The notes: a model not told the origin generated them from the sequence alone. Positions 5,946 through 56,425 are shown, counted from the first letter of the stretch. The stretch is DNA of 64,000 nucleotides from Raillietiella orientalis (GCA_036172245.1 JAYWIR010000081.1:248001-312000), one strand, 5' to 3'. A program made the numbers and translations.

Positions 5946-6333
5946 GAGGTTTACTTGAAAAAATAAACGTCTTCACGAACCGAATTTAAATGAAGGCTCT
6001 GGAGAGTGACGCCTCTCATTGATTCGAGAAGGTGTTTCTTCGCACCTAAGAGTCGCGTCCAGTCCCCCGGCGGACGCCACACCCTGCATGGCGGTACCTT
6101 GTCGCGAGGAGGTATCTCGAAAATTAGCCGGGAATGGTCCGACACCGTCGACGCAACCTTCCCCCGTTTACCGACCCGCGAACACGGGTCGGCGTCGAGA
6201 AACGCGTGGTCGATGCTGAGGACTATTCCCCTCTCACCCGCGAACAAGTTGCGCGCACGCATAACGGCGCACAACTCGTTCATCGAGTCCTATTCTGTTT
6301 CTGGCTCACCTGTTAGCAGGCGGAGATTGAAAT

Positions 6334-9300
6334 TTATCACCCGGTCACGCCGGGGCGTTAATTAATAATAATAAACTGGTCAGCGACAATGTCCTTAACC
6401 AACAGAACGACAGAGAACATAGAAAAATTACCGGCACGCAGGCCTGGTAAACAAACCGCTCGCAGCGCGGGAGGAATGAGGGGAAACAAACAAAAATCAA
6501 AACCTGGAGGGAAGGGTAACGGGTTTTTGGTTAGGCTCCGTACTCACGGGGTTTTATACGATGAGCACCTAAAATGTTCCGGAGCCTATGGGGACGCGGG
6601 TGTAAAAAGAAAATACAAATTTAGTTTATGGAGGGTAGGGCAATGATCACCGGGATGGCCGCTGATGAGGGTGTGTAAACCGGCGGTGTATTGCGGCGAG
6701 ATTCCTCTTTGTCTCCTCTGTCAAATGAGGCCATCTAGCGGATGCTCCCATGTAGAAGGATGCTTTGCTGATTACCTCTTGGTGCTGTCCGTTGATTACC
6801 AACGCCTGGAGGACGGAAACTATCGCGCGTATGCAACCGATGGTTGCAATCCTTGCGCTTAGTGAAAGCCCGCTCGGCGTGAAGAATCGTCGCAGCAAGT
6901 CTCTTGCGGTGTCCACGGAATGCAATTGTGCTGTTGCCAGCCTACGCCACAGTCCTTGTAGGACACCGCAGTCCAGAAGTAGGTGCGGAATCGACTCCGT
7001 CGATCCGCACCGAACGTAGTTCGCAGACGCAAGTCCCCCGGAGTCACGATGCCAACGCTCGTTGCACTGAAAACCCCAGTGAACGAAAAGCAGCACGGCT
7101 TGTTTCCAAGCAAGGGGGAGCAGCGAACTGTCCATACACTGTGGAGCGACTACAAGTTCTTCGGGGGTGACAGCAAGTTCTTCTGCCCACCGGAGGAGTC
7201 CCTTTGCAGTAACACGAGGAGTGGCGGCGTCCGCCAACTCACTTGTCTTCCAGGTGCCAAGGAGTTTGGTTCTTTTCGCTATCGTGCAGGAAACCTCCCA
7301 CCTCGTCGGTTGGTAACTGTGGTTTCTTGCCCTGAGGGCATACAGCGCTGCGGCAAGAGGCGTGGCAGCCAGGGTAGAAAACTTTACGTCGTCCTGCAGT
7401 ACTTCTTCCAAGGATCGTGGAAAAAATTGGCGCAGGGGGCGAAGATCTTCAGGGCGTATTCCTTGGAACGCCGCCCAGCATTCAACAGACTCCTGCCGCC
7501 AAGCTTCAAAGTTCATTGGGCGGCAGGAGATCCAAGAGTGTGCTTCCAGAAGTGCGGTCAACTGCCGCAATGGAAAACCGAAACCCCGCTTCCTGTATTG
7601 AGTGCCCGGCAAAAGCGAGAGAAATCCTCCGCTGCCGGCGCATCTCCGCAGGAGAATGCGAGCTGGCACACACAGGGGGGATGTCCATAGCTGGGCACAC
7701 AGTGCCAGCAGTCGGAACTGCACCTGCAGTCCGATTCGCTCCATTGTCAAGATACCCAAACCAGCATCCCGACGCGGAGCTGACAAATGTTTAAGGCGGA
7801 TCCTGGATCTCGCCGGACCCCAGAGAGCGTTCCTGAGCAGGCGCTTAGCCCGCTGTTTTGCTGCATAGGGGGGGTCCAAAACAAAAAACAGGGGACGCAG
7901 GAGGGGGGCCGCAAGGGTGTTCCAAATAGTCGCCCGTTCCTGCAAGGTATACTTGCCGTTAAAGAACGGGCTGATGACCAACTCTGCTTTCTGGAGACAG
8001 TCCGAACACGCTTCGGCTGCGCCGAAAGCGCCCAAAGGAACGCCAAGGTACTTAAAGTACCCGCCCGTGGGGATCCCCAGGCGGATCCAGTCGGACTGCC
8101 CCTCCCACGACGTACCCACAAAAACGACCACGCTCTTCTCTCTGTTCACGCTCACGCCCGCTCCCCGACGAATCAGGTCGATGAAATCCACGACAATGGA
8201 CGCCGGGGTGGACATGGGGAGCAGAAGAAGCAGGTCATCAGCGAAGGCGGCCACGGCAAGCGTTCCCGGGCAGGAGCTTGGCAAGTGAGACAGCGTCAGC
8301 CTGTATGCTTTTAGCACCAACTCAAAGAAGATGCTGAAGAGCAACGGGCTTAAACTGTCGCCCTGTCGGATGCCCCTACGAACGGGAATACCATACAGGC
8401 GGCAGCCGCTAAAAGTGATGCAGGTTAGCGCGTAGCGCCAGCACGCGCGCAAATACAGCAGGAGTTGCGCCGGGAACACAAGGCGTTCCATAAGCTCCAA
8501 AAGCAGCTTCTGGTTTACGCAGTCGAACGCCTTGTGGAGATCGACCGCGACCGCCAAGGCACCTGGCGTTCCCTCCTGCCGTCGGCGCCTGTTCTTTTTG
8601 CCTGCGGCAGTGACTTTCGCAGCAGCCTGGCTTTGCGGCGCCACAACTTCCTGCAGCTGCATCCATGTACGCGCGAAAAGGATGTTCGCCTCCATGGATC
8701 GTCCCGGAACCGCGTAGGTTTGTTCCGGGCTCACCACAGATTCCGCGATACTTCCTAACCGCGCGACCCACAGCTTGGAAAACAACTTGACGTCCGAGTT
8801 CACCAAGGTGATCGGACGCCAGTTGTTAAGTTGGCGCAAGTCTCCGCCTTTCTGCAGGAGACGCACCTTCGCTGAGCGGAAGGAATCAGGGACATTCCCG
8901 GATTCACTCATCAGCGTCGCGAGTTTCAGCATCAAGGGAATGAGCTCCACTGCAAGGCACTGATAAAACTCTGCAGGGAGCCCATCCTCGCCTGGCGCCT
9001 TTCATCTCTTCAGCCCAGCGATGGCGGACGAAAATATATCCGCCGTGAAGGGCTCGTCGAGACGTTCGCGTTCCTCCTCGCCGACAACACGTGCATCCTG
9101 AGACAGGAGTATCTCAGAAAGAATATCCTCCGTCGGGGATTCCGCGTAGAGCGAGGAGTAGTAGCGTCTCAGAATGCGGCGTACTTCGGCTGGGGCCCAA
9201 CATTCCTGGCCCTTGTCGTCCAACAGGCATGCTGCTCCGGACTGCCAGACCTGGCGCTCGGCCCTCACCTTGTACTCTGCGAGACGCCCGACATCCGCGC

Positions 9301-11515
9301 GTCTCGAAAACGTGCGGGCCTGCAGAAAGTCTCTACTGTTGGCCACGCCCTCTCGGAAACCGCGTGGAAGCCGGTGCAAGGGGAATTGGCAACAGAACTC
9401 GCGGACAGATCTTTTGAGATCGTCCCAGTCTACAAGTTCTTGAATGGCAAAGCCTCGGAGGTATCCACGTAGATGCTCCGCAGCCTCCGGTTGGCTAAGC
9501 CAATCCGCCTGCATCCTTCAGTTTTGCAACGGAGGCCCCCTGCCTGGAGGAAGGTTCTCAAACTCCAACCTGTGGTGGTCAGAAAGCTCAGTCAACAATC
9601 TTCCTCTCCTACCCACACGCGAATGCAGGTTTTCATCGAGGAAAACGTGATCGAGCGAACTTACCATTCCAGGTTCGCTGACCATCAAGTTGGCGGCGTG
9701 CACGGACGCGCACATCTCGATGGGCAGCGCGCGCTCCCTCGGGCGGCTCCAATCGTCGGAGAGCAGGCGGACGTTGAAGTCCCCAGCGACGAGGTGCGCC
9801 ACTTGGAAACCGGAGTTGTTGAGCCAGTGGCTCTGCACCTCACCAAAGAAAGCTACTCTTTCTTCGAGGTAGCGAGAGCCACTCGGCGCGTAGACGTTCG
9901 TAACGACGAGATCGATGGACTCGGACCACTTGATGACAAGCTGGCCTATCCGTCCGTCGTCATCGAAACGAACACTACGCACCGCTTCCGCCATTTTTCC
10001 TCTTACTAGGAACGCGACGGCGCACGTGTGTGCGCCGCCGCACCGCCAATGTAGCGTTCCGCCTGCGCGCTCCTCGATTTCGGCTGCCTGCTCGTCGGAG
10101 ATTACGTGAATCTCCTGCAGCAGCGCGAGGTCGAAGAAGCGCGGGGCGTTGGCTACTAATCGCCTCTTCTCGTCGTTCTGCAGACCGTTCACGTTTTAAC
10201 ACGTTACGGACAGACGACGAGAGGACGCGATTCCCCGCATTACTGCTGGGAAGGTGGCGGCTTTTTGCTCGCTTTATCTGGCGAGCAGACGGCGAGCAGC
10301 ACGACTGGCTGGAGGGGACGGTCGCCACCGTCCTCTGTCGTGCTGCATGCATGTAATGCCTCCACGCCAGGCTTATCCCCGTCGGGTTTCGTGGAGACTT
10401 CGCGTGGCTTCGCGGCTACAGTTTCCTGGCTGCCTACTTTTGATCGGCGCGCACACGCTTTCGAGCGAGTTGTCCTCGTCTCGGTGATCGGAACGGCATC
10501 CATTTCGGAGTTTGACCGGCGCATGTTCGATCGGGTTTCGGCCTTCCGCGAAGCAGTGACAGGTTCTGCTGGATTGACAGCTGTCCTGTTTTCGTTTTCT
10601 GGCACCAGAGCATCGCTTTTGGTGACGGCTGCTTTCCCGGCGCGCGCGTTTTCAGCGTGCTCACGCGCAGTTGCACGAGGGACCTTTGCTGAAGTCTTCT
10701 TTACTTCATTACGGTTCCTCATTTCGCGTGGCGCCGTAAATGGAGATTGTGCTCCATGGCCATCTTTGAAGCCATCCGCGTCTTTGGACGTGAGCACTTT
10801 GGATGGCTTCGACACGCTCGTCAGGGACACGGCCTTCGAAAGGGCTTTTCATCCCTTCGTTGGCATGGCATCCGTGGCAGTCGAGAGCTTGCTCTCCGAA
10901 TGCGACGGCGTGAGATTTGAGCTCATGGACTGTGGCGAATTTCGCCAACGCGTTCCGAATATCAGTATCGGAGATTTCCGACTCGATGTCGAAAATCTTC
11001 ACCACAAATGAGTCGTCCATGGCGGTCGGGAAGACCTTCTGGCCACGGATCGACAACGGGGTGCGCAGCAAGCGTTGCACAAGTGCCGCGTCTTTGCAAC
11101 GCACCTTGAAATAGCCCATGTCTTTTACGGGCATAATGGCGAGAAGGTCCTCCTCCCGCACGCCAACACGGGTCAGTTCATCGTTGAACTGATTCCCGTC
11201 GCGCGCAGAAAGAAAACCACTCACCTTATATCGGAGAGCAGGTCTATAGCCTTGGGCTACGTATGCCCGCAACTCCGACTCGTCGAGTGGTTTCCCTCTG
11301 ACGGCTGCTGTGGCAGCAACGTGAGCAAAACTCCTCTCCATTGGCGAGAAAGACGAAGTGGAGGCGGCCGTCGGTTCTGCAATTGCAGATCCGGATGCTG
11401 TTCCTCCAACTTGAGTAGCTTCAAGTTGGGTCGACATCGTCATCAAAATGTACGACGCCAATATGAAGCGGATGAAAGCACGGAGACGAGAGCGAAGAAA
11501 AACACGTCCGCACTC
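6334..11515 (-). mobile_element. Tx1-type element, family B, both ends present; ORF1 internally deleted, ORF2 with stops
   Basis: Flanked by direct repeat GATTGAAAT (6325-6333 and 11516-11524). 5' end matches the copy starting at 54336. ORF2 10240->6647 has WNVNG-like, LQEIH, GDFN, SDH, DLHKAFD, RQGDSLSP, FADD, KYLG motifs. Lacks about 0.73 kb of ORF1 (zinc knuckles) relative to the 54336 copy. Confidence 0.93.
6647..10240 (-). pseudogene. ORF2 (APE endonuclease + reverse transcriptase) of family B, interrupted by in-frame stops
   Basis: ORF pieces 9518-10192, 9002-9514 and 6647-8950 are in one frame; ATG at 10238-10240 overlaps the ORF1 TAA. Confidence 0.9.
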
Positions 11516-13945
11516 GATTGAAATCTCCCGCTATCAGGTGATCCTTTCGCACGTTGCTGTCCGCCAGCCAGTCGAGCTTCATGGTTTCCAGCAACCTGGT
11601 GCAGTCGCAGTACCCCTGTTTGCCGCTGGGGCCATACACATTTGTGACGATTTGGTCGATCGAGTCGGAACAGCTGAGAATCAGCTGACCGATCCGACCG
11701 TCGTCATCAAACCGCACGCTTTTTACGGCAGCGCCGATGGCTGGCTTCACGAAGAACGCGACCCCGCAGGTGTTGCGGCAGCCGCATTGCCGGTACAGCC
11801 GACCCCCCGCGATCGTCTCGATCTCCTGGGCGTCTGCCGCGGTGATCACGTGGATCTCCTGCAGCAGGGCCAGGTCGTGCTCACGCATGGTTTCGGCCGT
11901 ATCTCGCCTGTTGCTGTCGTCGCGCAGTCCGTTGACGTTCCAACAGGCCGCGCGAATCCGACGGCGCCTGGCGAGCCCAGGTGTTAGTCCTGGGAATACG
12001 GCGATGCGGCGTCTGCCACCTGCTGGGGCGGGTCGCTAGGTGGAAGGGAAGGGGGGAGAGGTACTGAAGGCACCTGTTCCTCCTCCTCCATCGGTGCCGG
12101 CGCGTCGGCAGAATCAACCGCAGGTGGAATCGCGCCAACCTGTTCGTCCTCCTCCATGGATTAAGGCTGCTCAGGTTTTGCGACAGCAGGAAGGACTTCA
12201 CCCCCCTGCTAACCCTTCTCCATGGGGGTGGCCGACTCGACGGCTTCCGGGCGTGGGAGTTTCCCCTCCAAGTTTCCCACGCTGCCGCTACCTTCTTGGT
12301 TCTCTTCCTCGCTGGTGGAGGGGAGGCGCCTCCTGGGTTTCTGGGACTTGCGACCCGACTTCTTGGGGGGTGCCTCAGAGAAAAAGAATGCGCTTCCGTC
12401 ACCCAGGTCGCACTCACCTGCGGGGGGCTTTTTCGTCGGAGCCAGCCTGCGTACGCCCTTGCGCAACGGGGTTTCGCGCTCGGCGAGCGTTGCTGCGAGC
12501 TCCTCCGTCGCTTTCTCGAAGGCCGCGTCTTCGACAGCGGCAACCGTTGCCGTGGGCTGCTCCGCGACCTTAACGAGCGCGGCGTCCTCGCTGACGGCGA
12601 ACGTTGCCTCGGGCTCCTCCGAGACTTTATCGAGCGCGGCGTCATGGCTGTCTGCGCGCCAGTCTCGCGTTTCACCCTCTAAACGTTAATTGGTCTCGTC
12701 CTCGCGTGTATCCTTCGCGTCCGCATCAGCTGTTTCGTGAACATTGCCGCGGGCGTCCTCGGCAGGAACGGCTAAGCGTTCCAATGCCAGCGAGCATTCG
12801 CAAAGTTGTTTTTTTGTAAGCAGCGCGGCTTTTTTCTTTTTGCCGGCATTTATCTTCTCCGACTTTTCTTCTGCCATCACTTTCTCTTTTTCTTTTCCGG
12901 CCTGATCAGCTGCTAACCCTCCTTTAATCTCACGTCCACGGGAGCTCTTTCTTCCGACGCCTGTACTGGAGGCTGGCAGTTGGGAACGGCCATTTTCGCG
13001 AACTGATCTTTCTATCAGCTTTCCACGTTTTGTCTGCGCCTTTATGACGGCAGGGGGCACCGGGGTGGGGCGCTTGGGGCAAACGCGCCGAACGTGACCG
13101 TTTTCCTCGCATAGTTGGCACACAATGTTCGGGCACCTTTTCCGTAGACGCCCTACTGCATTGCAGTAGCCACAAAATTGGGGTTTGCCCACGTACCAGA
13201 GGTCCACCGCTTCTTGGCAGAGCTCCAGCTTGGGGTGAAGAGCACCACCCTCTTTTACGGAAATACGCACCGCAGCTTGACCTCCGAAAAGGCTATTGTA
13301 GCCTTGGAAAATCGTGGGATTCCGCCACAACGCGTGCACTTCTACGTGCTTTCGCAACTGATCACCAACCGCTGACCTAGTCATGCGACTGGAGATCCCA
13401 GTGAGATGGACCACCACCGAGCGGTCCATCGTCACCGGCAAGATCTTTCGACCATCAACGATCAGCGGGTCGGTGATCAGGCGTTCGGCCAAGGCGATAT
13501 CTTTGCATACCACCTCGACCCGCTGCCTGCCGCTGAGGACGGAGAGGCCGTCAAGATCTTGTTCGAAAATGTTGGCGTGCTGCAGCGCCATCGTAATGGC
13601 GCGTGCAGTTCGCCCATCGAAAAGGTTGCCTACTTTCTAGACTACCGAGGGTTTATACCCCGCTTCGTTGTAGTCTTCCATCTCGGCCATGGCTTCCACG
13701 CTAGGCGCGGCCTCCATGGCGCTCGATGACCTAGACGTCGCCGGGGATGATTCCGGGGCGGATGCCCCTTATCCAGTGGGCTGTGGGGGCAGACAAGCCT
13801 CCTTCACGCCTACTTCCATCGCATTGTCCTCTGGCAACGCTGCCATCGTACACCGACGATGTGCACGCACAAACCACTCAAGGAAAAAGCACTCGCCTTG
13901 CCACGCAGGCGGAGCGCAGGAAAAGCACGTTCTCTCTCCACAAAG

Positions 13946-14570
13946 GGGATTTGGTGCGCAACGAAAGGGCGTATTTGCACGCCCGTCGTTTCGCAAGGAC
14001 TTCTGACGTCCGTCGTTTGGCGGAATACCAAGCCTACGCCGAGCGTCAAGCATGGCAAACCGGACCGCCCAGCGTGCTGGACAATTTGGATCAGGAACAC
14101 TCGAAGCCGGCTTCGATACGTCGCCTCGTGCGCGGATTTTACTTTCCTCTTTAAGCAATTGCACCTGCGTAGTGGTACGCTTCGCGGCGCCTGCTTCCAG
14201 ATGGAGCCCAGGCCAAAGATGAGGAGGAGAAAGAAAGCTTCCGCGAGCCTTTTACGACCGGGGAAATCGTCACCGCGATTAAAAGGCTTAAAGGCGCCAG
14301 GGGAGGACGGCCTGCCAGCATAGTTCTTTTAGTGCTTCGTCGCAGAGCTGACCCCCCTGGTGCTTAAATTGACATCGCTGATTTGAGACCAAGACGAGGT
14401 TCCTTCCTCGTTTCGGCCAGTCAGGGTGAGGCTCCTTCCTGAGGGAGGAGACCCCAGGAAATTAAGCAACTGGCGTCCGATCACGATAGTGAACACGTAC
14501 GCCAAGCTGCTGGCCGGACTGTGGGCTGCGCGACTGGGACAGGTAGCTGACAGCTTCGTCAGCACAAATC
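13946..14570 (+). pseudogene. Tx1-type ORF2 fragment (linker to early RT); host of the A' 5' end
   Basis: VRNERAYLHARRFARTSDVRRLAEY...KAPGEDGLPA...NWRPITIVN. Confidence 0.85.
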
Positions 14571-14845
14571 CTTCAAAGGGACTCGGGGTTTCCCTTTGCC
14601 CCAAAGTTCTATACGTAGGAAGTCCTTCGTCCGCTTTTTAGATTCCACCGGGCGGGGCAAACAAAAAGCAAGGGGCGCAGGATGGGGGCAGCGAAGGCGT
14701 TCCAAACCGCGGTTCGTTCTGGCAAATGAAACCTGCCTTCCAGGAACGGACCGATTGCCGTCTAAACTTTTTGGAGGCAGCTAGACAACGCTCCCGCAAT
14801 GGAGAAGTTTCTTAACGGCACAGCGAGGTACTTGAAGCACTTCAA
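14570..14845 (-). pseudogene. Short Tx1-type ORF2 fragment (KYL motif and downstream)
   Basis: Reverse strand reads KCFKYLAVPL... and aligns by eye with 20530-20790. Confidence 0.75.
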
Positions 14846-15680
14846 GGCTGGCGGCGAAGGCTTGAGGAACGATCAGAACTATCTCCACTCCCGGAGATTC
14901 TCCAACAAGCCCGACGTCCGTCGCCTGGCGGAGTTCAAGGCTGGAGCTGAGAGGCAGGCCCGGAAATCCAAGTTTGCCTGATTACTGGACGAAGAAGGCC
15001 AGGAGCACTCATCTCCAGCGCAGGTTTGCCGCATTCTGCGGGATTTCTATTCCTCCCTTCACGCGCTGAGACCACCAGTGAGCTTCTCTGCCCAGCGCCT
15101 GCTGCCAGAGGGTGCTCCCGCGTTGAGGGAGGAAGAAATAAACATCTTCTTCCAGGAGTTCACGATAGCGGAGATAATCTCCGCCATCACTAAATTGAGA
15201 AAAAACAAAGCACCAGGGGAAGACGGCCTGCCAGCTGAATTCTACCGACACTTCGTTGCAGAGTTGGCTCCTCTGATGCTCAAATTGTGTTTGCTGATCC
15301 GTGAACGCGGGGATGTCCCCAGCTCGTTCCGTTCAGCTAGAGTACGTCTACTCCCCAAGGGAGGAGACTTGCGAAACGTTAGCAACTGGCGCCCCATCAC
15401 TGTGGTGAATGCGGATGCAGAGTTGCTCGCCAAACTCTAGAGTGAGCGTCTGAAACGGGTAGCGGAATCCGTGGTCAGTCCGGAACAGAGTTACGCTGTT
15501 CCCGGAACAACCATGGAGGCCAACTTGTTCCTCGCCAGCACAATTTGGAAGTTGCAACAGCGCGAGGCTCGGCTAGGTCGGAAGAGTCCTGGACTGTTCG
15601 CTGACCGGGAAGAGGAAAGCCGGGGGAAGGATGCGGCGCTTGGAGCTCTTGCGGTCGCAGTCGACTTGCACAAAGCATTC
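14846..15680 (+). pseudogene. Tx1-type ORF2 fragment from the GEG-RN linker to RT motif DLHKAF, cut there by an antisense element
   Basis: GGEGLRNDQNYLHSRRF...KAPGEDGLPAEFY...NWRPITVVN...AVAVDLHKAF. Confidence 0.88.
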
Positions 15681-16530
15681 AATTTTCACCCGGATTTCTC
15701 CGGGTCGTTCATTAAAAAATAAACTTTATGTTGAAAGTATTTATGGCTGTGGAATAGCTCCAGCCAGTAGCGAAGAACCACGAAGCTTGCCAATTCACCG
15801 GTCTCTGGATAGGCACAGTCCACCAAGGCATCAGGGGGAAGGGGAAAAACAAAAAAACTAAACAAAAAGAAACAAAGGGTGATAGGGAACGGGAAGGGAT
15901 CACTGATGCTGCTGAGGCCGCATCATCCCTCTCAGAATGCAGGCAAGCTCTTGTTTGTTGTGAACATCCAGGTGGGGCCATCGCGACGCCCTCCTCAGGA
16001 ATTCGGAGGCGCACTGGATGGCTTCCTGATCGCGACGTCCTCCCGTCGCCGTACTCCAGGCGGCGACGATCCAACGAAGGCAGAAAAAGGCTGCTATCGA
16101 GGACGCAGGCCGCAGAGCGTCGGCAGCGAAGAAGACTTTTAGTGCGTCCCTGGGGTTGCTGCAAGGGATACCGATGGCCGCGGCAAATCGGAACCAAAGG
16201 GGCCGAAGGGCAACACAATCCACTAGGAGGTAGGGGAGGGATTCCCGTTCCCCGCACCTTACACAATTGGGATCCACCGCTCCCCAGGTCCAGTGGTGGC
16301 GATGGGAGTCGCAGGGACTCCCCTATGCTGCAACAGGAATGCCGACTCTAGCCATTTTAAGGGAAGAGTGAAAGTGTTCATAAGAACCGGAGGCCACTTC
16401 CGATGTTGAATCGGAACATCGAGCAGCGCTCTCCAGCGCAGAAGTCCATTGGGAGGCGAATTCGGGGGCGCAGCATGAGTTAGCTGACCCGTCTTCCACT
16501 CTCTCTGCTTCTTCTCCTTCCCGGAGATTT
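15681..16530 (-). mobile_element. 3' fragment of a Tx1-type element (possibly family F) with complete 3' UTR and terminal hairpin
   Basis: LPLKWLESAFLL...CVRCGERESLPYLLVDC, stop at 15900, terminal CCCGGA-GAAA-TCCGGG (15689-15704). Confidence 0.85.
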
Positions 16531-16534
16531 TTAT

Positions 16535-19155: not shown

Positions 19156-19371
19156 GGGATTCGGCGTTGCCACCCGGGTACGCCCGGGGCGTTTATTGAT
19201 AAACTTTACATGCGTGGTACAAGGCCCCACCACGGCCGTAAACACAGGACCTGTCGGGACACCGGGACGCAGCCCGGCGTGGCACTCCCCGACAGCGAAG
19301 GGGGATGGGGATGAGACAAAAAGTAAAATAAAAAGAAACAAACAAAAAGAAGTTGGAGGGCAGGGAAGGGA

Positions 19372-24720: not shown

Positions 24721-24815
24721 CGGACACCAACGATGTTCCACACCAAACAGCACAAGAAAAAACCGCTTCCTGTCGACTCACTCGGGAGCGAAGGAAACAC
24801 ACGTCCACTCGCCAA

Positions 24816-37247: not shown

Positions 37248-37255
37248 ACGCATCA

Positions 37256-41067: not shown

Positions 41068-41093
41068 GTGAACAACCCGCCGCCTGAGAGGGT

Positions 41094-41100
41094 GGACGTG
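41094..41100 (+). promoter_or_regulatory. Conserved 5' motif (G/A)GACGTG, DPE-like internal promoter element (representative)
   Basis: Near the 5' ends of A (19140-19146, 24800-24806, minus), B (11503-11509 minus, 54342), D (41094, 52326), E (42300) and F (30367). Confidence 0.5.
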
Positions 41101-45200: not shown

Positions 45201-47926
45201 CGGGAGTTTTATTCCTCCTTATACGCGCCATTAACACCCGAGGGCCAATTCGCGCAGCAGTTGCTGCCGGATGGGGCTCTCGCGATCGGGGAGGAAGTTT
45301 GTTCCAGGTTGTCGGAACCATTTACGGTGGCAGAGATTGTCTCCGCCATCAGTAAATTGAAGACAAAGGACGGCCTGCCCGCGGAGTTTTACAAACACTT
45401 CGCGACAGAGCTGGCTCCCCTGGTGCTCAAGCTAAGTACGCTGATCCGCGAACACGGCGAAGTTCCCGCCTCGTTCCGATCAGCAAAAGTACGTCTCCTG
45501 CCGAAGTCAGGAGACCTACGCAAATTTAGCAACTGGCGTCTCATCACAGTGGTGAATGCGGACGCAAAGTTGTATGCCAAATTGTGGGTTGAGCGTTTAG
45601 GACCGGTGGCGGATTCCGTGATCAGCCCGGAGCAAACATACGCTGTTCCCGGGCGAACCATGGAAGCCAACCTGCTCCTCGCCAGCACATGGTGGCAGTT
45701 GCAACAGCGCTTTGCACAGGACGGTCAAGGGAGCCTTGAGCACCCCTCTGACCAGAGAGACCCGGTAGAGGGTGGGGCGGAATCGGCGGGAGCCTTCGCC
45801 ATCGCTGTCGACTTGCGCAAAGCATTCGACTGCGTCGACCAGGATCTCCTTCTGGAGCTCCTGGAACGAATGGGTTTCCCGTCCGTGCTCCAGTCCTACC
45901 TGCGCTCCTGCTGGCGCGACGCGTTGATTAACATTGTTTTCAGCGGCCGGCACGTGTATGGCGTGCCAGTGCGCCGCGGCATCCGGCAGGATGACAGCCT
46001 GAGCCCCTTGCTCTCCAGCATCTACTTTGAGTTAGTGCTGAGGGCATACAGGGTAACTCTGGCAACCCTGCCGAGCTCGTGTCCCGGCACGCCTGCTGTG
46101 TCGGCCTATGCAGACGATCTTCTGCTGCTGCTTCCCGGGTGCACCCCGGCGAGTGCACTCGAGGACTTCTTCGAGTTGCTGCGCCGCGGGACGGGCCTGG
46201 AGGTGAACAGGGCGAAGTCGTCCATAACTTGTACCTGCTCGGCGTGGGCTGGACGGTCGGACTGGATCCGCTTGGGGATCCCCACGGGCAGGTGCTTTAA
46301 GTACCTTGGTGTTCCGTTGGGGGAATTCTGCGTGACAGAAGCCTGGTCCGACCGTCTACAAAAGGCATCGTTGGCGATCGGTGCGTTTCACGAAGGCAAG
46401 TTTTACTTGCAGGAACGGGCCGCAGTGTGGAACGCGTTTGCGGCCCCCCTTCTACGCCCTTTACTTTTTGTGTGCGCCGCTTCTTATTTCGTCAGGAAAA
46501 GAGCAGCGGGCCTCCTACGGACAGTCCTTTGGGGCAAAGGGAGGTCCCGTGTGCGTCTTAAAGACTTGTGCGCTCCACGTAAAGACGGTGGACTTGGCCT
46601 ACTTACGCTGGAGCGCATGGAAGTACAATTTCAGTTTAGGACTCTCGCCCTTGCGGCGGAATTGTGGGACACGCCTTGGTGCGGTCCAGCACGACTTCTG
46701 GCCCAGCGAGCCTCAGGATATAGCGGACTTTCTTCGTTTCTCTGGGCGCGCGACCGCTGACAAGCACACTCCGGCTTTCATCTGCGGCGCATGGCCGTTG
46801 TGGTTCGGAAGAACACCTGGATCTCCTGCGTCCCAGGGAACTACTCGGCATGGTTGCACGAGACAGTCTCCACTTGGGAAAAGCTTCACTTTCCGGCGGG
46901 CACAAGAAACACTTGCCTGAAAAGGCACGCCCGCTGGACGCTACAGGAGATCGTGCAGTCCCACGATCAGCTTCTGTGGGCCCTGATAACCCCGCTTGCT
47001 CCTGTGCTGCCCTTCCTACAAAACGCTAGAGACAACAGGGAGCAGGGGAAATGGACCGTATCCTGCACCATCAAAAGTAGGACACAAAAGATTAAGGCGT
47101 GGACATCTCGGCAGCTAGCGGACGCTGCGACGCCGAGTGTCCCGCCCAACGGAATCCGACGCTGGGGAGAGCTACTCGGACTATCTCCGGAGGAGATGAA
47201 GTGGCCCCCAGCGTCTTGGAATAGTGACTCTCTCCCCCTGAAATGGCAAAAGGTGGCGCTGCTCGTGATACATTGGGGTTTACCCTTCAAGGCACGCCTC
47301 TCTCACTCCACTCGGGGGGCTGTGGATTCCCACTGCGACCGGTGTGGGGAGAAAGAGACATTCCCCCACCTCCTTATTGAGTGCATTGCTCTCCGCCCTC
47401 TCTGGGATCGTCTTGGAGCAATCCTGGACATTCGCGGAGGCGGCCCTAAAGGTGTTTTTAGGCGACTCTTCTTGCGTGATGCCTTGTCCCCTCCCGCTTC
47501 TGTGGCAGTTCTTTGCTGCATTAGAGGGATCGTGTCGGCTTGGAACGCGACAAGAAGAAGGCGCCAAGCTTGCGGCAATGCTGTACACTGGACTCGCCTT
47601 TTTGTGAGAAACATTTGCAGGTGGAGACACCTGGGTGCACAACGGACGCAGCTTGTGAAGATCCTGAACAGGATCTAGAGGACCTTTAAGCGTGCAATGT
47701 GATTCCCTTCCCGCCCTCCCTTCCCAAACATAAGTACTCCCTCCAACTTTTACATTTTTTTGTTTGTTTCGTTTTTTTCTTCCCGTTCCCGCGCGTTGGA
47801 AGGACCTCGCCGGTTTAGAACCGGCAAGAAGCAGGCTGCTTTGTGCTGAACCATCAGGTTCTTCACCCGAAAATTACATGTATTTTAATTTTTTTAGATA
47901 AATGCCCCGGCATATCCGGGTAAAAA
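42298..47926 (+). mobile_element. Family E full-length Tx1-type element nested in D ORF1
   Basis: Direct repeat CGCAGTGACG at 42288-42297 and 47927-47936; the empty site (CCCGCAGTGACGTCACC) is visible in D copy 1 near 36692; ORF2 44136-47678 with stops. Confidence 0.96.
42382..44127 (+). CDS. ORF1 protein of family E (two CCHC zinc knuckles)
   Basis: Open frame MPEDTANAEK...; CGNCETTGHLKRRC and CLRCGNKGHVRKVC. Confidence 0.9.
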   Translation: MPEDTANAEKGDGRALSPQPMDVGAISPTDSSPAPARSWSAVVAAPAPPPCEEQRAYESHGYNPALLYKVGGLYSPAMLRTFAAEFKKLKVPEEEVLGLSVRSGGQLVELNCKTAGMTQQLLRCPVTVNGRRIFPFTADKSIVIHLTGLTMRMAKNAVRQELEKYGTVHALWAKPNTLGYTRAFSGYAAARVTVREDSGLPHRLQVDEEYIDLWYIGKPKFCGNCETTGHLKRRCPNIVCLRCGNKGHVRKVCPLRFASTPVGNKRTESPQEPDKQDPQSSETSQTGEISTPVEQKPEEGETVAENSWQLVKKKESKKKGKAPKKTVKMVAKTVRRSTVHIDRVPAKASTSKPSIDTAPAASIDRAVPASCGEIATVAIDSAAHVAAIEIVVPVQSTGSVVAASESSAAAVPNDSAPVAAIESVVTSPDSPTGGEIRDDVERISDANFAQAAEELAAFRRQPVKAEKKAVRRPATAKDPETSEFDAESGNSPSVGLPKRKHKNATGARKRAVTSQEEVEMPSDSEEESMCVAQCDFVPESILYQLLTQSTADGVSDAPEHSNDMDPDHPSSEQEAVSSTPP

Positions 47927-50900
47927 CGCAGTGACGTCACCATCAGCTGACGACAATGCCGTTCCGGCATTGCCAGCGAAGGACGTCTGCGCGCCGATCG
48001 ATGAAGCCGCCCCTATCGCGCCTGCGCAAAGCGTCGGTGCGGAAAGCAAGGAGGCGGCGCGCATAACGGACGCGACCTTCGCGCAGGCCGCGGAAGAGCT
48101 GGCAGCCATGTTACGGCAGCCTGCCAAGGCCGAGAAGAAGGCCTTGAGACGACCGGCAACGGTGAAGGGCCCGGAAAATTCCGAGTCCGAAACCGAAGCC
48201 GGTTGCTCTACTTCCGCAGCCGTGCCGAAGAGGAAAGCTGGCAAGAAGGCCGGATGCCCGAGACGTGTCGCCTCCTCCCAAGTGGAGGAGCCCATGTCAT
48301 CGGGCACGGAGGAGGAGGCAATGTGCGTCGCGTCACGCGAGCCTTCTCCGATCCGTGTCTCGGAAGCCAGCGCAATGGAGGTCGCTGCTGACGACGTGCT
48401 CCCGGGTGAGCAGCCGACCGTCGTCACGTCCGCCAACGAGCCGCCTCCCGAACGGGAGGAGGCCGCCTCCACCCCACCATAAATACACCAATGCGTGGGC
48501 TCGCCTCCTGCCGCCGCTTGCGCATCACCTGTTGGAATGTCAACGGGTTGCGCGACGACGGAAAGAGGCGAGATGTAGCCGCCATACTGCGAGATTTCGA
48601 CCTGGTGCTCCTGCAAGGGACGCACGTTCTCCGACCGGGAGATGTCACGGAAATCGAAAGAATCGCGGGAGGGCGGCTACTGTGGAGGAACGGAACGGAC
48701 AACTCCTGCGGAGTGGCCTTTCTGCTAAAGCCAACCGTCGACAACTCACTGCGCAGTGCACGGTTCGACGGGGATGGTCGAGTTGGGCAGCTTGTGTTCA
48801 AGTGGTCCGACTCGATCGACCTCGTAGTCACGAACCTGTACGCTCCGGTGAGCAGCCACAGGACCGAGGAACGCACTGCGTTCTTCGAAACCTTGCGGCG
48901 AGACTGGTTGGCCGAAGCGTGCGTGCGAAGGGCGCACCTCATTGCGGGCGATTTCAATCTCCGCCTGCTGGCAGGTGCGCCCAGCGGACGAGCACAGCTG
49001 GTCAACGAGTTGTGCGCAGCCATGCATGCGCGCAACTTGTTGGCCGGTGATGCCGGGAGAGATCGGAACATCAACCACATGTTCCTCGACAACCACCTGT
49101 GTACGCGGGTGGGAACTCGAGGAACGCTCTCGGCAGAGCTGTCCGACCATCCACGGCTCGTGCTCGAGTTACATCCGCGCAATAAGGGCCCTACCCTGAA
49201 AACATGGCGCCTGCCAGGGGATTGGTTGCGCCTCGCAGGAGCGGCGGAACATCTACGCTGTTTCCTGCGAGGATTCCTGGTTCAGACGCTCGCGGACTGG
49301 GACGAAATGAAGTGCTCAGTCCGTGAGTTTTGCGACCAGTTTCCCCTGGAACGTCTTCCGCCGGGCTTCGGTGAGGGTGTCAGGAACGAGCGGGCGTACC
49401 TCCAGGCGCGCCGTTATTCCCGGCGTCCCGACGTCCGTCGCCTGGCTGAATTCAAGCCTGAGGCGGAGAGGCAGGCCTGGCAGTCAGGCGCGGCCTGCCT
49501 GCTGGATCATCAGGGCCAAGAACGCTCCAGCCCAGCCCAGGTAAGCCGCATCGTGCGGGAGTTTTATTCCTCCTTGTACGCGCCACTAACACCTGAGCGC
49601 CATTTCGCGCAGCGCCTGCTGCCGGATGGCGCTCTTGCGCTCAAGGAGGAGGACCGTTCCAGATTGGCGGAACCGTTCACGATGGCGGAGATCATCTCCG
49701 CCATCAACAGGCTCAAGAGAAGGAAGGCACCAGGGAAGGACGGCCTGCCCGCGGAGTTTTACCATCGCTTCGCGTCAGAGCTGGCCCCCCTGGTGCTTAG
49801 GTTAAGTGCGCTGATCCGCGAACACGGCGAAGTTCCCGACTCGTTCCGGTCAGCTAAAGTACGTCTCCTGCCGAAGTCAGGAGACTTACGCAACATAGGC
49901 AACTGGCGTCCCATCACAGTAGTGAATGCGGACGCAAAGTTGTATGCCAAGTTGTGGGCTGAGGGTTTGGGGCGGGTGGCCGCTTTCGTAATGAGTCCCG
50001 AGCAGACCTATGCTGTTCCCGGACGAACCATGGAGGCCAACCTGCTCCTCGCCAGCTCATGGTGGCAGTTGCGACAACGCGTTGCACATGACGGTCAAGG
50101 GAGCCTCGCGCCTTCCTCTGACCAAGAAGATCGGGCAGAGGGTGGGATGGACTCGGCGGGAGCCTTTGCCGTCGCGGTCGATTTGCACAAAGCATTCAAC
50201 TGCGTCGACCAGGATCTCCTTCTGGAGCTCCTGGAACGCATGTGTTTCTCTGCCGTGCTTCAATCTTACCTGGGCTCCTGCTGGCGCAACGCGTCAATCA
50301 ATATCGGTTTCAGCGGCCGCCACGTGTACGGCGTGCCCGTACGCCGCGGCATCCGGCAGGGTGACAGCCTGAGCCCCTTGCTCTTCAGCATCTACTTCGA
50401 GTTGCTGCTGAGGGCATACAGGGTAACTCTGGCAACCCTGCCGAGCTCGTGTGCCGGCACGCCTGCCGTGTCGGCCTAGGCAGACGATCTTCTGCTGCTG
50501 CTTCCCGGGTCCACCCCGGCGAGTGCACTCGAGGACTTCTTCGAGTTGCTGCGCCAAGGGACGGGCCTGGAGGTGAACAGGGCGAAGTCGTCCATGGTCT
50601 TCGTCGGTTAGGCGTGGGCTGGACGGTCGGACTGGATCCGCTTGGGGATCCCCACGGGCAGGTGCTTCAAGTAGCTCGGCGTACCGTTGGGGGACTTCTG
50701 CGCAGCAGAAGCCTGGTCCGACCGTCTCCAAAAGGCAGCGTTGGCGATCGGTCCGTTCCAAGAAGGCAAGTTCTACTTGCAGGAACGGGCCGCGGTGTGG
50801 AACGCGTTTGCGGATCCCCTCCTTCGCCCCCTACTTTTTGTTTGCCGCGCCCCTTATTTTATTCGGAAACGAGCAGCTTGTCTCCTGAGGACAGGTCTTT

Positions 50901-52316
50901 GGGGCAAAAAGAGGTCCCGTGTGAGGCTCAGAGACTTGTTCGCTCCACGTAAGGACGGTGGACTTGGCGTACTTACGCTGGAGCGCATGAAACTACAACT
51001 TAGATTCAGGACACTCGCCCATGCGGCGGATTTCTGGGACACGCCTTGGTGCGTTCCAGCACGCCTCCTGGCCCAACGAGCCTGCGGATTCGACGGACTT
51101 TTGTCGTTTCTGTCTGCGCGCGTCTGCAGAAGACCATACTGTGGCTCTATGCTGCGACGCATCTTCGTTGCGGTTCGGGAGAACGCCTGGATCTCCTGCC
51201 TCCCAGGGCACTACTCCGCCTGGTTGCACGAGTCAGTTTCCACCTGGGAAAAGATCCACGTTCCGGCGGGCACAAGGAACACTTGTATGAAAAGGCACGC
51301 CCGCTGGTTGCTGCAGGAGATCGTGCAGTCCCACGACAAGCTTCTGTGGGCCTTGATAACCCCCTTCGCCCCAGTGCTGCCCTTCCTTGTGTATGCCAGG
51401 GACAGTAGCGAGCAGGGGAAATGGACCGTTTCCTGCACTATAGGCGGCAGGACACAATCGATAAAGGCGTGGACATCTCGGCAGCTAGCTGAGGCTGCGA
51501 CGCCGAGTGTCCCGCCCAACGAAATTCTACGCTAAGGCGAGCTACTCTTACTATCTCCGGAGGAGATGAAGTGGCCCCCAGCGTCCTGGAACAGTGCATC
51601 CCTCCCCCTGAAATGGCAGGATGTGGCGTTGGTTGTGGTCCTCTGGGGACTTCCATTCAAAGCACGCCTTCATCACACAACCCGGGGGGCTGTGGATCTT
51701 TATTGTGACCGGTGCGGGGAAAAAGAGACCTTCCATCACCTTCTCATCGAGTGCAGTGCCATCCGCCCTTTGTGGGATCGTCTCGCGTCGATCCTGGACT
51801 TGCGCGGATGCGGCCCAAAGGACGTTTTCAGGCGCCTCTTCTGTAGTGACGCCTTGTCCCCGCCCGCTAGTGTAGCAGTCCTCTGCTGCATCAGAGGAAT
51901 AGTGGCGGCTTGGAACGCCACCAGAAGAAGGCGTCAGCCAACCGGCAACGCCTTACACTGGACTCGCGTTTTCGCGCGAAGTGTCTGCAAGTGGCGCCAC
52001 TTGGGCGCTGAAAGGACTCAGCTTGAGCGGATCCTGAATCGGATCTAGAGGACCTCTCCACGCGCACCGTGATCCCTTCCCCGCCCTCCCACCCCTACAA
52101 CATTTGTTCCCCCCCACATTTGAACTTTTTGTTTCTTTTTGTTTTTCTTTATTTCCCATCCCCGCGCATCGGAAGGACCTCTCCGGCACGGAGCCGGTAA
52201 CCAGCAAGCTGTTTTGGAGTGGTGAACCTTCGGGTTCGCCACGTGACATTTTTTCTGTTATTTTATTTTTAAGAAATAAATGCCCCGGCACATCCGGGTG
52301 TGAACAACCCGCCGCC

Positions 52317-54335
52317 TGAGAGGGTGGACGTGCTTTTGTGGTGCTCCGCGTTTTTCTCGCGAGTGTTTTCGGGGTTTTCAGCTGTGAGCGGTGGTTCCTG
52401 GGCAGAGATGCCCGAGTACGCCGGAAAGACGGCGGAGGGGGGCGAGCGAGCCTCGTCCCCCCAGCCCATGGATGTGGGGGCCATCTCCCCCACGGAATCG
52501 TCCCCGCCCCGGCGAGGGCTTGGAGCGCGGTGGTGGCGTGGTGCATTTGACCGGCATAACGATGCGCATGGCAAAGAGCGCCGTGCGAGAATCGTTAGAG
52601 AATTTCGGGACCGTTCACGCGTTGTAGGCAAAACCCAACACCCTGGGTTATACCAGGGCGTTCAGTGGCTATGCCGCCGCGCGTGTGACGGTCCGAGAGG
52701 AAAGTGGTTTACCCCACCGACTGCAGGTCGGTGATGAACACATCGACCTGTGGTACATAGGGAAACCTAAATTTTGTGTAAATTGCGAAGCCATCGGACA
52801 CCTCAAACGGAGGTGCCCTAACATCGTGTTCCTCCGATGTGGTACCAAGGGACACGTACGAAAGGTGTGCCCTTCTCGTTTTGCGTCCACTCCTGCTGGC
52901 AACAAGAAAACCGAGTCGCCACAGGTGCAGGACAAACAGCATCCCCCATCGGGTGAATGCTCGCAAGCAGGCGAGAAACCGATGCCGGAGGAAGAAAAGG
53001 CGGAGGATGGCGAAGCTGTCGCCGAATACAGCTGGAAGTTGGTGGAGAAAAAGGAGAGCAAGGGGAAAGGTACGGCCCCCAAGAAAACGGTAAAAATGGT
53101 GGCGAAAAGCGTCCGTCGTTCCACCGTAAACATCGATCGCTTTACCGCGAAGGCTTCCTCCAGCAAGCCGTCGATCGATACCGCATCTGCGGCATCGATC
53201 GATAGAGCGGTCCCGGCCCCGTCCACCGAAATCGCTACGGTAGTGATCGATATCGCGGCACCTGTTGCCGCGATCGATACTATTGTTCCAGTTCCGTCCG
53301 CTGGAAGTGTTGTAGTGGCGAGTGAAAGCTCAGCCGCTGCTGTTCCGATCGATAGCCCGCCGGCTGCAGCTTTCGATTCGGCAGTGACGTCACCGGACTC
53401 GCCAACAGGCGGCGAAGTCTGCGATGACGCGGAACGCATCTCCGATGCAGCGTTCGCGCAAGCCGCGGAAGAGTTGGCTGCCTTGTTAAGGCAGCCCGTC
53501 AAGGCCGAGAAGAAGGCCGTTCGACGCCCGGCTACGGCGAAGGACCCAGAAAACAGCGAGTCCGACGCCGAAACCGGGAACTCGTCGACCGTAGGGTTGC
53601 CGAAAAGAAAAAATAAAAGTTCAACGGGAGCTCGTAGGCGTGCTGTCCCCACTCAGGTAGAGGTGGAAATGGCATCCGACAGCGAAGAGGAGTCAATGTG
53701 CGTTCAAGCGTGCGACTCTGCGCCTAAGAGCATCCTATTCCAACTGTTGACACAGTCCTCGGCCGACGAAGCACACCAAACTCCTTCCGAATCCGTCGGC
53801 GTGGACGCGGAACACCCGTTTCCTGAAAGGGAGACGGTTTCCTCCACACCACCATAAATACACCTATGGTGTGGGCTCGCCTGCTGCCGTCGCTTGCGAA
53901 TTACTTGTTGGAACGTCAACGGGTTGAGCAGCGACGGCAAGAGGCGAGACGTAGCCGCTATACTGCGAGAATTAGACCTGGCTCTACTGCAAGAGACTTA
54001 CGTGCTCACAGCAGAGGCAGGCCAGCATTTCGAGAGGATCGCAGGGGGCAGGCTACTGTGGAGGAACGGAACAGATCACTCCTGCGGAGTGGCCTTTTTG
54101 CTGAAGCCGTCCGTCGAAAACTCACTGCGTAGTGCACGGTTCGACGGGGGCGGTCGAGTTGGGCAGCTTGTTCTCAAGTGGTTCGACTCCATCGACCTCG
54201 TGGTCACGAACCTGTACGCTCCGGTGGGCAGCCACAGATCCGAGGAACGCACTGCGTTCTTCGAATCCCTGCGGCGAGACTGGTTGGCCAAAGCAGGCGA
54301 GCGAAGGGCGCACCTCATTGCGGGCGATTTCAGTC
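52317..54335 (+). mobile_element. Chimeric D/E-like element (D 5' end, internal deletion, E-like ORF1, endonuclease up to GDF); host of family B copy 2
   Basis: 5' end matches D; sequence jumps from ...GTGGTGGCG to TGGTGCATTTGACC near 52538; downstream ORF 52685-53857 resembles E ORF1. Confidence 0.88.
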
Positions 54336-56425
54336 GAGTGCGGACGTGTTTTTCTTCGCTCTCGTCTCGGTGCTTTCATCCGCTTCATCTTGGCGTCGTA
54401 CATTTTGACGACGATGTCGACCCAACTTGAAGCTACTGAAGTTGGGGGAACAGCATCCGGATCTGCAATCGCGGAACCGACGGCCGCCTCCACTTCGTCT
54501 TTCTCGCCAATGGAGAGGAGTTTTGCTGACGTTGCTGCCACAGCAGCCGTCAAACGGAAACCACTCGACGAGTCGGAGTTGCGGGCATACGTAGTCCAAG
54601 GCTATAGACCTGCTCTCCGATATAAGGTGAGTGGTTTTCTTTCTGCGCGCGACGGGAATCAGTTCAACGATGAACTGACCCGTGTTGGCGTGCGGGAGGA
54701 GGACCTTCTCGCCATTATGCCCGTGAAAGACATGGGCTATTTCAAGGTGCGTTGCAAAGACGCTGCACTTGTGCAACGCTTGCTGAGCACCCCGTTGTCG
54801 ATCCGTGGCCAGAAGGTCTTCCCGGCCGCCATGGACGACTCATTTGTGGTGGAGATTTTCGACATCGAGTCGGAAATCTCCGATACTGATATTCGGAACG
54901 CGTTGGCGAAATTCGCCACGGTCCATGCGCTGTGGAGGGTGCGTAGCAACCTCAAGGACTTCCCGTCCATACACAGCGGAGTCGCTGGAGTCCGGCTTAC
55001 AATGCCGGACCGCCGTCTGCTGCCCACCAAACTACAGGTGAAAGACACGGTCGTTCACCTGTGGTTCGTGGGCAAAGTAGAAACGTGCGAGCAATGCGGG
55101 AAGGAGGGGCATTGTTTGAATAAATGCCCCTCTGGAAAATGCCGTTATTGCAAACTATCCAGGCACCCATTGAAAAATTGCCCGGATCTTTTGCGAAAAA
55201 AGGCAGCCGCGGAGCTTCATCTTAAGAAACAAGGCGCGGAGAAAAAGAAAAAATCTGCGAAAAACATGGAGACCCCACGGCAGAAATTCGGTAAAAACGC
55301 GAGGCGGAATGTCGCCCCAAAGCAGCATGAAACCTCGCACGCGAAGCCCTGCGTGCCCACTCTCGAGGCAGGGGAGCCGAAAAAGAAAGAGTGCGGGTAA
55401 TCCGGGGCAATGGTAAGTCCCCCTAGGCGCAATAGCTGTCCTTCGCGAGCACGCCCGGCTCTTTCGGAGTTCGAGCAACCGGCGGGGACGTCAATGGACA
55501 ACGGCGGTAAGGACACTTCCAGTACCGTTAGATCCAATCCTTCACCTCCTGCAGTGACTGAGAAGCCCAAATCGGGTAAGAAGGGTTGTGCAGTGTCGAC
55601 TTCGAAAGTCGGCAAAAAACAATCCGCGTCGCGATCCGACACCGCGAAAGCGGAGAAAAATCTCACGCCGTCGCAATCGGAGAGCAAGCTCTCGACTGGC
55701 GCGGATGCCATGCCAACGAAGGGATTAAAAGCCCTTCCGAAGGCAGCGTCCATGACGAGCGTGTCGAAGCCATCCAAAGTGCTCCCGTCCTAAGACGCGG
55801 ATGGCTTCAAAGATGGCAATGGAGCACAATCTCCATTTACGGCGCCACGCGAAGTGAGGAGCCGTAATGAAGTAAAGAAGACTTCAGCAAAGGTCCCTCG
55901 TGCAACTGCGCGTGAGCACGCTGAAAACGCGCGCGCCGGGAAAGTAGCCGTCACCAAAAGCGACGCTCTGGTGACGGAAAACGAAAACAGGACAGCTGTC
56001 AATCCAGCAGAAGCTGTCACTGCTTCGCGGAAGGCCGAAACCCGATCGAACATGCGCCGGTCGGACTCTGAAGTGGATGCTGTTCCGATCACCGAGACGA
56101 GGACAACTCGCTCGAAAGCGTGTGCGCGCCGATCAAAAGTAGGCAGCCAGGCAACGCTCGCCGCGAAGCAACGCGAAGTCTCCACGAAACCCGACGGGGT
56201 TCAGCGTGGCGTGGAGGCATTACATGCATGCAGCACGACAGAAGACGGTGGCGACCGTCCCCTCCAGCCAGTCGTGCTGCTCGCCGTCTGCTCGCCGGAT
56301 AAAGCGAGCAAAAAGCTGCCACCTTCCCAGCAGTAATGCAGGAATCGCGTCTTCTCGTCGCCTGTCCGTAACGTGTTGGAACGTGAACGGACTGCAGAAC
56401 GACGAGAAGAGGCGATTAGTAGCCA
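54336..56425 (+). mobile_element. Family B copy 2: 5' end, ORF1 (with stops) and first codons of ORF2, 3'-truncated
   Basis: MSTQLEAT..., CEQCGKEGHCLNKC and CRYCKLSRHPLKNC, TCWNVNGLQNDEKRRLVA; near-identical to 10150-11515 on the reverse strand. Confidence 0.93.

Follow-up and report, generated by a model that had tools for sequence, protein, structure and literature searches.

Several long interspersed nuclear elements (LINEs) of the Tx1 clade are target-specific, and the targets described for them include other transposons; Tx1L inserts in Tx1D, Tx1-Mar in Mariner-N4_AMi and Tx1-9_AMi in Harbinger, Tx1-8_Crp and Tx1-4_AMi target long terminal repeat elements, and Keno, Kibi and Koshi are further target-specific Tx1 families (passages of PMC4494074). 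The same passages describe, for the Tx1-mobilised SINEU-3, tandem copies that sandwich a target-site duplication (TSD). Here we analysed a stretch of 64,000 nucleotides from Raillietiella orientalis (GCA_036172245.1, JAYWIR010000081.1:248001-312000; hereafter the window, with all positions counted from its first letter), which contains a nest of L1/Tx1-like LINEs inserted into one another. We consider it probable, at roughly 0.8, that four L1/Tx1-like lineages insert, through target-primed reverse transcription (TPRT), into specific sequences inside the coding regions of their sisters. Such elements would resemble the Tx1 families, as presented in those passages of PMC4494074, in having an endonuclease of the apurinic/apyrimidinic (APE) type, a defined target, transposons as targets, TSD-sandwiching tandems and a change of target among relatives; TSD length, 13-16 bp in the Tx1 families and 8-14 bp in the nest, may be counted as a further likeness. 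They would differ from the Tx1 families in taking as targets the coding sequences of sister LINEs from their own radiation, with several lineages acting as both guest and host, and in using at least four or five different sites within one 50-kb nest.

LINEs that nest in existing copies have also been described. Zepp and ZeppL, L1 LINEs of green algae, insert into existing copies and build GC-rich nested clusters, a likeness to the present nest (passages of PMC8226300, PMC9940879 and PMC3446292); Zepp arrays, however, consist mostly of 3' ends as a result of frequent 5' truncation (PMC8226300, in part), whereas 12 of the 13 5' junctions in the window are full-length. A single Zepp family nests in itself, and the passages of the three sources that deal with Zepp state no defined nucleotide site; the nest, in contrast, comprises several lineages, each of which appears to have its own site at the nucleotide level. 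Cnl1 of Cryptococcus neoformans is likewise a non-LTR element that prefers its own copies and forms arrays, but according to the relevant passages of PMC12810828 it is R2/MoTeR-like and subtelomeric, and its precise specificity is undefined, whereas the elements here are of APE type and their sites are defined to the nucleotide. A sequence-specific nick by the element's own endonuclease, followed by TPRT into a multicopy 'safe' target, is the strategy of R1/R2, TRAS/SART and other classical site-specific LINEs (for names see PMC1919474 and PMC7265360), whose targets are host multicopy genes or telomeric repeats rather than, as here, other LINEs. Among the preferences of transposons for transposons, a review names those of Tx1 for Tx1D and of Tourist for Tourist, and its relevant section describes other transposons as a low-cost insertion niche for Tourist miniature inverted-repeat transposable elements and in the nested transposons of maize (Cosby et al., PMC6719617); Tourist elements, unlike those of the nest, are DNA transposons with a loose preference, as opposed to nucleotide-exact sites in coding motifs.

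The initial annotation of the window offered a mutual-targeting network as possibly undescribed, and this stands in part. Transposon-targeting Tx1 elements and self-nesting LINEs are already published; a full-text literature search (with Repbase Reports, the supplements of PMC4494074 and Higashiyama 1997 outside it) found no report of several LINE lineages targeting defined sites in each other's coding sequence, that is, of a multi-lineage, multi-site network.

Lineages and element ends of the nest

The nest was mapped by tblastn with the intact open reading frame (ORF) 2, self-BLAST, BLAST of four full-length references and tblastn of ORF1, and its boundaries were read directly. By ORF2-homology mapping, self-BLAST and junction read-outs, positions 4513-56428 resolved into about 24 L1/Tx1-like LINE pieces, for which stop-to-stop frames and Pfam gave a domain set of APE endonuclease, reverse transcriptase (RT) and an ORF1 with CCHC knuckles. 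Trees of the RT and of the C-terminal region separated four lineages: A (A_G, G2, H1, S6, A3 and K1), B (B_X, B' and S17), F (Z and Z2, placed by tree) and C/D/E (K3/C2/C3, D, E, R and K2). Within the window all four lineages fill both roles, guest and host, and no copy has both ORFs intact.

Ten 3' ends lie in the nest, nine of which carry AATAAA, a CCCGG-N4-6-CCGGG hairpin and a T(G)NNAA tail without poly(A); only that of Z has no hairpin. Full-length heads account for 12 of the 13 5' junctions, and the other is the 5'-truncated end of S6. A GACGTG-type motif stands 0-22 nt inside the junction in 10 of the 12 heads, while two C heads begin differently, without it. TSDs of 8, 13 and 14 bp, the constant 3' tails and the one 5'-truncated copy are signatures of LINE insertion. 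The initial annotation had stated that almost every intact element end meets a defined position in the ORF of a sister family, and all 23 recognisable ends were found to adjoin another LINE of the group, tandem sisters included. Five other breakpoints (4512/3, 14562/3, 16534/5, ~52540 and 56428/9) are not element ends but join internal points of elements, and are best read as deletions or 5' truncations.

Insertion sites in sister coding sequences

Two B insertions lie in sense orientation at the same codon of the endonuclease motif GDFN, in different hosts. B_X, a full-length B element (6334-11516, minus strand), splits H1, a member of the A' family, into an upstream half with the 5' head, ORF1 and the endonuclease as far as GDFN (11517-13942, minus) and a downstream half (5970-6333, minus; 88% identical to A_G 2321-2656). 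The 8-bp TSD ATTTCAAT is present at 6326-6333, within the downstream half, and at 11517-11524, and the two halves of H1 are contiguous in A coordinates around B_X. The second copy, B', comprises 2.1 kb from its 5' end (54335-56428, plus) and cuts R, an E-like element with 84% identity to E positions 518-2304 (52548-54334, plus). The B copies are 97.0% (578/596) and 94.7% (730/771) alike and their hosts 69.0% (310/449); because identity jumps at the junction in this way, the two insertions are separate events and not one that was copied.

The linker motif GFG of ORF2 is met, in antisense orientation, by three A-lineage 5' ends, those of A_G (24812), H1 (13942) and the truncated S6 (14842), all of which stop directly before 14 host nucleotides reading (C)AAGG...GG(C/T)G. 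The host of H1 is K1, an A-lineage fragment (ORF2 amino acids 319-529; 13943-14562, plus) that begins at GFG. S6, 86% identical to A_G (14563-14842, minus), adjoins with its truncated end the GFG of K2, a C/D/E-lineage host (ORF2 amino acids ~317-597; 14843-15682, plus) that has the GFG site on its left and an HKAFD site on its right. A_G itself (19167-24812, minus) is a full-length A element with an intact ORF1 (603 amino acids) and a frameshifted ORF2, and lies at the GFG of K3, the 3' part of a C-family element (ORF2 amino acids 316-1212 and 3' end; 24813-27819, plus). Likeness among the three hosts, which come from two lineages, is 61-67%, as against 74-86% between the inserts and A_G. K3 is host to a tandem, in which A_G is joined head-to-tail to G2, a second A copy represented by its 5' 2.6 kb only and 94-97% identical to A_G (16535-19152, minus). 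The 14-bp spacer between them (19153-19166) is identical to host positions 24813-24826, and reads as a sandwiched TSD copy, with the 14-bp host sequence on both sides of A_G.

At the RT motif HKAFD, two F-type junctions are antisense. Z2, an F-lineage 3' part (15683-16534, minus), ends at 15683 in a hairpin tail, beyond which K2 reads as the antisense of H-K-A-F-(N), and the antisense of H-R-A-F-D in the A-lineage element A3 precedes the head of F5 (5' end at 30356; 30356-31546, plus), a fragment with a 5' head and ORF1. Both flanks cover the same 14 nucleotides, as would be expected for one site with a single 14-bp TSD. F5 was assigned to F only through its sharing of this site; the Z2 and F5 fragments do not overlap, and we assume that they represent one family.

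Further sites lie in ORF1 of the C/D/E lineage. C3, the first 1212 bp of a C-family element (34266-35477, plus), is cut in ORF1 at 35477/35478, 12 nt past the motif TGACGTCA, by three tandem D units that are 95.6-97% alike by self-BLAST. The first, P1 (35478-41072, plus), is full-length, with an uninterrupted ORF2 and a frameshifted ORF1 split over two frames; the third, P3, is the first 234 bp of a copy (52305-52538, plus), and its junction with R (~52540) is not an element end. The second, P2, is divided by E (42301-47926, plus), a full-length element in sense orientation in P2 ORF1, into a 5' part that ends in the TSD copy 42288-42300 (41073-42300, plus) and a 3' part that starts with the TSD copy 47927-47939 (47927-52304, plus). 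This 13-bp TSD lies around TGACGTCA, and the corresponding site in P1 (36692-36704) is unoccupied. E has an intact ORF1 (593 amino acids), an ORF2 in three frames, and GDFN changed to GAFN (44597-44610). The octamer palindrome TGACGTCA occurs four times in the window (35459, 36697, 47932 and 53385) against 0.76 expected from 100 mononucleotide shuffles; all four copies are in C/D/E-lineage ORF1s, where they adjoin the D and E insertion sites, and the reading frame differs between C and D. Each D hairpin is followed by 10-13 nt that could be either a TSD of C or part of D's own head; the window has no uninterrupted C copy for comparison. Another C-family piece, C2, consists of the first 638 bp (27820-28457, plus), lies in tandem behind K3 and is cut in ORF1 by A3.

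Four sites were seen once each. Z, an F-lineage 3' part with ORF2 amino acids 802-1212 and the 3' untranslated region (4513-5969, plus), has its 3' end antisense at SVRE of H1. A3 (A lineage, 78% identical to A_G in the RT, from ORF2 amino acid 593 to the 3' end; 28458-30355, minus) has its 3' end antisense in C2 ORF1 and is in turn cut at HRAFD by F5. S17 (B lineage, 75% identical to B_X in the RT, from ORF2 amino acid ~378 to the 3' end; 31547-34265, minus) has its 3' end antisense in F5 ORF1, and the 5' end of C3 is antisense in the linker of S17, at about amino acid 378. Sister families of one lineage are found on different sites (A and A3, B and S17, Z and Z2).

Most of the sites proposed in the initial annotation were borne out by these junctions: two insertions of B in GDFN (the same codon in hosts 69% alike, with one 8-bp TSD), A/A' antisense at GFG with a tandem (three inserts in three hosts 61-67% alike, with the TSD-copy spacer), and D three times in tandem in C ORF1 with E in D ORF1 (the 35477/35478 junction and the 13-bp E TSD). 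Others held only partly. An F-type element antisense at HKAFD has one 3' and one 5' junction in its favour, from fragments that do not overlap, and C antisense in the ORF2 linker has its tandem (K3/C2) and a single host junction (34265/34266). An insertion of Z at GFG, which a shared CCGAAT had suggested, was rejected; upon translation its 3' end, at 5969 and without a hairpin, falls at SVRE, 13-16 codons upstream of GFG.

Nine guest-in-ORF2 events (two of B, three of A, two of F, C3 and Z) were simulated with uniform position and orientation and a tolerance of 3 nt. Five coincident pairs were observed against 0.035 expected, and four or more were reached in 0 of 2,000,000 simulations. The null is crude, yet a weak preference would not give nucleotide-exact reuse in hosts so diverged; the reuse of positions is genuine and greatly exceeds what chance would give. 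The target sites are in conserved stretches: across the aligned ORF2s of D, A and B, the top 14-nt stretches at GDFN and GFG are invariant at 11 of 14 positions, with 65 of 3698 stretches scoring higher, and the best at HKAFD at 12 of 14, with 14 higher. The endonucleases of D, A and B all keep N..QE..GDFN..SDH, at 54-59% overall identity.

Of the words in 54001-64000, a fraction of 0.30 was present in one DNA sequencing run (X1). Matched to 24000-41200 with a likeness threshold of 90%, X1 gave 208 short contigs (40 at 99% or more, 52 at 95-99% and 116 at 90-95%), which, with 6 of 77 loose ends listed, neither bridged the window junctions independently nor sampled flanks genome-wide. At one joint a 3' hairpin tail is directly followed by a D 5' head, apparently a further junction of tandem type or a variant of those in the window; two further joints are consistent with contigs from paralogues in which each side matches one family.

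The guests' own copies of these target sites were also compared. For GDFN (9773-9784, minus, against 11517-11528, minus, 37712-37723, and 22499-22510, minus), hosts read GGAGATTTCAAT or GGCGATTTCAAT, whereas B's own DNA is recoded as GGGGACTTCAAC. In E, the element's own ORF1 site differs at three of 14 nt from those of D and R (43640-43680 against 53385 and 36697). Unlike the recoded B and E sites, A_G's own GFG site matches its target.

Mechanism and competing explanations

The insertions bear the marks of TPRT, with an unvarying 3' tail, TSDs of 8-14 bp, 5' ends that are complete in most cases and a single truncated copy. B would nick DNA encoding GDFN and insert in sense orientation with an 8-bp TSD; A and A' would nick DNA encoding the linker GFG, with insertion in antisense and a TSD of 14 bp; an F-type element would use DNA encoding HKAFD, antisense, with a TSD of about 14 bp; E would use the site around TGACGTCA in D ORF1, in sense orientation and with a 13-bp TSD; and D would use a site about 20 nt further along, in C ORF1. 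Because each insertion duplicates its target, a later copy could land in the duplicated site, which would generate the head-to-tail tandems (A_G/G2, the three D units and K3/C2). As read from the TSDs, the context of the bottom-strand nick differs between lineages and has no common consensus. By analogy with Tx1L, R1 and TRAS, we infer that sequence specificity comes from each lineage's own APE endonuclease. The conserved 3' hairpin would take the place of poly(A) as the handle by which the RT holds the RNA.

Within the window, mutual targeting is supported for B, A/A', E and D, and plausible for F. Several observations weigh against strict site-specific insertion. The three occupied GFG sites differ in sequence from each other, and close matches stand empty (GDFN in P1, P2 and A_G; GFG in A_G). 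Four ends are at single sites, with their nearest relatives elsewhere, so that specificity is either very labile or not strict. The five breakpoints that are not insertion ends mean that deletions also shaped the nest, and an isolated A-lineage RT fragment (60155-61240, minus) lies outside it, in AT-richer DNA. All of the evidence comes from one 64-kb window; the short contigs cannot show genome-wide flanks, and the role of the endonuclease in specificity is argued by analogy. The proposal in the initial annotation that each lineage has its own site in sister coding DNA is upheld on this balance for A and B, and less firmly for F and D/E; sister families within these lineages differ in site, at places seen once each.

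Targeting of, or retention in, an existing LINE cluster at the level of the region, as in Zepp or in centromeres, would require no nucleotide specificity and would make the shared junctions coincidental. Nested LINE clusters that target existing copies are known (passages of PMC8226300 and PMC3446292), the nest is GC-rich relative to its right flank, as in Zepp, and four ends occupy unreplicated sites; nevertheless, independent events hit the same position in the same orientation although their hosts are diverged, the tandems enclose TSD copies, and none of the 2,000,000 uniform simulations reached four coincident pairs where five were observed, which leaves this explanation improbable. We reasoned that shared junctions could also have arisen if a few ancestral nestings were copied as composite units, through segmental duplication, gene conversion or retrotransposition of host plus guest. 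BLAST alignments do cross two of the junction types (10920-11979 with 54931-53872, and 12886-14082 with 23749-24960), and the D tandem, at 95.6-97% likeness, could come from unequal exchange. Duplication of single events was an alternative that the initial annotation had itself set out, and it is contradicted at both the B and the A junctions, since the guests are more alike than their hosts; at the B junction, host identity of 69% gives way to guest identity of 97%, the A hosts, which belong to different lineages, are at 61-67% less alike than the guests are among themselves, and S6 is 5'-truncated whereas A_G and H1 are full-length. Copying of composites is accordingly given very little weight.

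Much the same small chance is allowed to an artefact of assembly, or to mosaics that arose where templates switched or recombined at conserved motifs, in which case the breakpoints at GDFN, GFG and HKAFD would mark template homology and not insertion. In favour of such an origin, assembly of repeat nests is difficult, the X1 contigs bridge no junction independently, and the breakpoints fall in the most conserved DNA; but the A and F junctions are antisense and cannot have come from a switch from one homologous template to another, complete 5' heads and 3' hairpin tails are present in the guests, and TSDs flank guests whose host halves join up without a gap when the guest is taken out together with one copy of the TSD. 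Site-specific insertion by the LINEs themselves is the reading we prefer. A bolder extension of it is offered tentatively, and we regard it as rather doubtful: that the elements form a hyperparasitic guild, in which APE specificity has switched at least five times and been aimed at sister DNA that is hard to change because the motifs it encodes are indispensable (GDFN, HKAFD, GFG and the ORF1 site), with the nest, and not the host genome, as their main habitat genome-wide. In such a guild, the recoding of a guest's own target, as in B (GGGGACTTCAAC in place of the host's GGAGATTTCAAT) and in the ORF1 site of E, would avoid self-insertion.

How APE-type LINE endonucleases gain or change specificity is poorly understood, and the nest would provide a natural comparative series; related endonucleases, 54-59% identical and with the same catalytic motifs, have different precise targets, and the enzymes and their targets stand side by side in one locus. 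It would also be a documented case in which constrained coding motifs of one transposon serve another, and the reverse, as a safe harbour that renews itself, and it suggests a simple route from site-specific insertion through tandem arrays to GC-rich repeat nests. Proteins of site-specific retrotransposons are being explored for targeted insertion, so that such elements may have practical use.

Coding capacity, flanks and minor features

The only uninterrupted ORF2, that of D copy P1 (37175-40813), spans 1212 codons from stop to stop and contains GDFN, SDH, HKAFD and YADD. It matches Exo_endo_phos (E 1.2e-14) and RVT_1 (E 1e-22) in Pfam, whereas the match to zf-RVT is weak (E 1.7e-4; 22.6 bits, below the Pfam cut-off of 27.5); the same frame carries a C-terminal Cys/His region, CGRC...HLLIEC. 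Its best match among solved structures in the PDB is human LINE-1 ORF2p (E 4.6e-46), as compared with only about 1e-14 for R2 proteins, and its endonuclease matches L1-EN chains (E 2.5e-5). A protein search with ORF2 returned 133 matches at E of 1e-20 or less, all 21-35% identical and almost all unnamed; protein clusters and a protein atlas gave no clade or informative taxon for them. From these sequence matches the elements can be placed as APE-type LINEs of the L1 superfamily, with 'Tx1-like' as a provisional label; the preference for target sequences in repeats or transposons, which the introduction of PMC4494074 gives as a trait of the Tx1 clade, is found here.

No ATG occurs before codon 205 of the uninterrupted ORF2 frame. 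In D (37175-37260), E (~44097-44130) and A_G (~22965-23020, minus), ORF2 lies in the -1 frame relative to ORF1, and the ORF1 stop codon TAA shares bases with an ATA that is in frame with ORF2 (A-TAA / ATA-A), directly ahead of ORF2's conserved start. The ORF1/ORF2 overlap holds no XXXYYYZ heptamer that could serve as a signal for programmed -1 frameshifting. Together these features suggest that ORF1 and ORF2 may be coupled by termination-reinitiation or by a non-AUG start.

Minor differences were noted within individual copies. B_X lacks 726 bp of ORF1 that are present in B' (10918-10920, minus, against 54932-55657); the possibility that this gap starts at the A3 site of C2, as a shared ORF1 hot spot, was dismissed, the two breaks being 8 codons apart. 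H1 is longer than A_G, and some of the surplus comes from a 57-bp tandem duplication of 2.1 copies in its ORF1 region (12525-12643). P2 and E read as dead copies; in the endonuclease of P2 (48491-49225), QGTH replaces the QETH of other copies, and E has the GAFN noted above.

GC content is 55-64% in the nest and 41-46% in the right flank. The observed/expected ratio of CpG is about 1 across the nest, which argues only against a strongly CpG-depleted genome. Rfam and tRNA scans of the window gave no matches. To the left of the nest, positions 1-4512 hold more LINE debris, including a B-like ORF1/endonuclease fragment (2-476, minus), a distant LINE endonuclease at 25-30% identity in which a GDLN motif is uninterrupted (2907-3757, plus), and an ORF1 fragment that adjoins the truncated 5' end of Z (4354-4512, minus). 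On the right, the nest stops within B' at 56428 and is followed by AT-richer DNA (56429-64000), which contains, besides the A-lineage RT fragment, weak RVT_1 fragments of other retroelements (57705-58010, plus; 58419-58730, minus) and a 51/102-bp tandem repeat (62004-62323).

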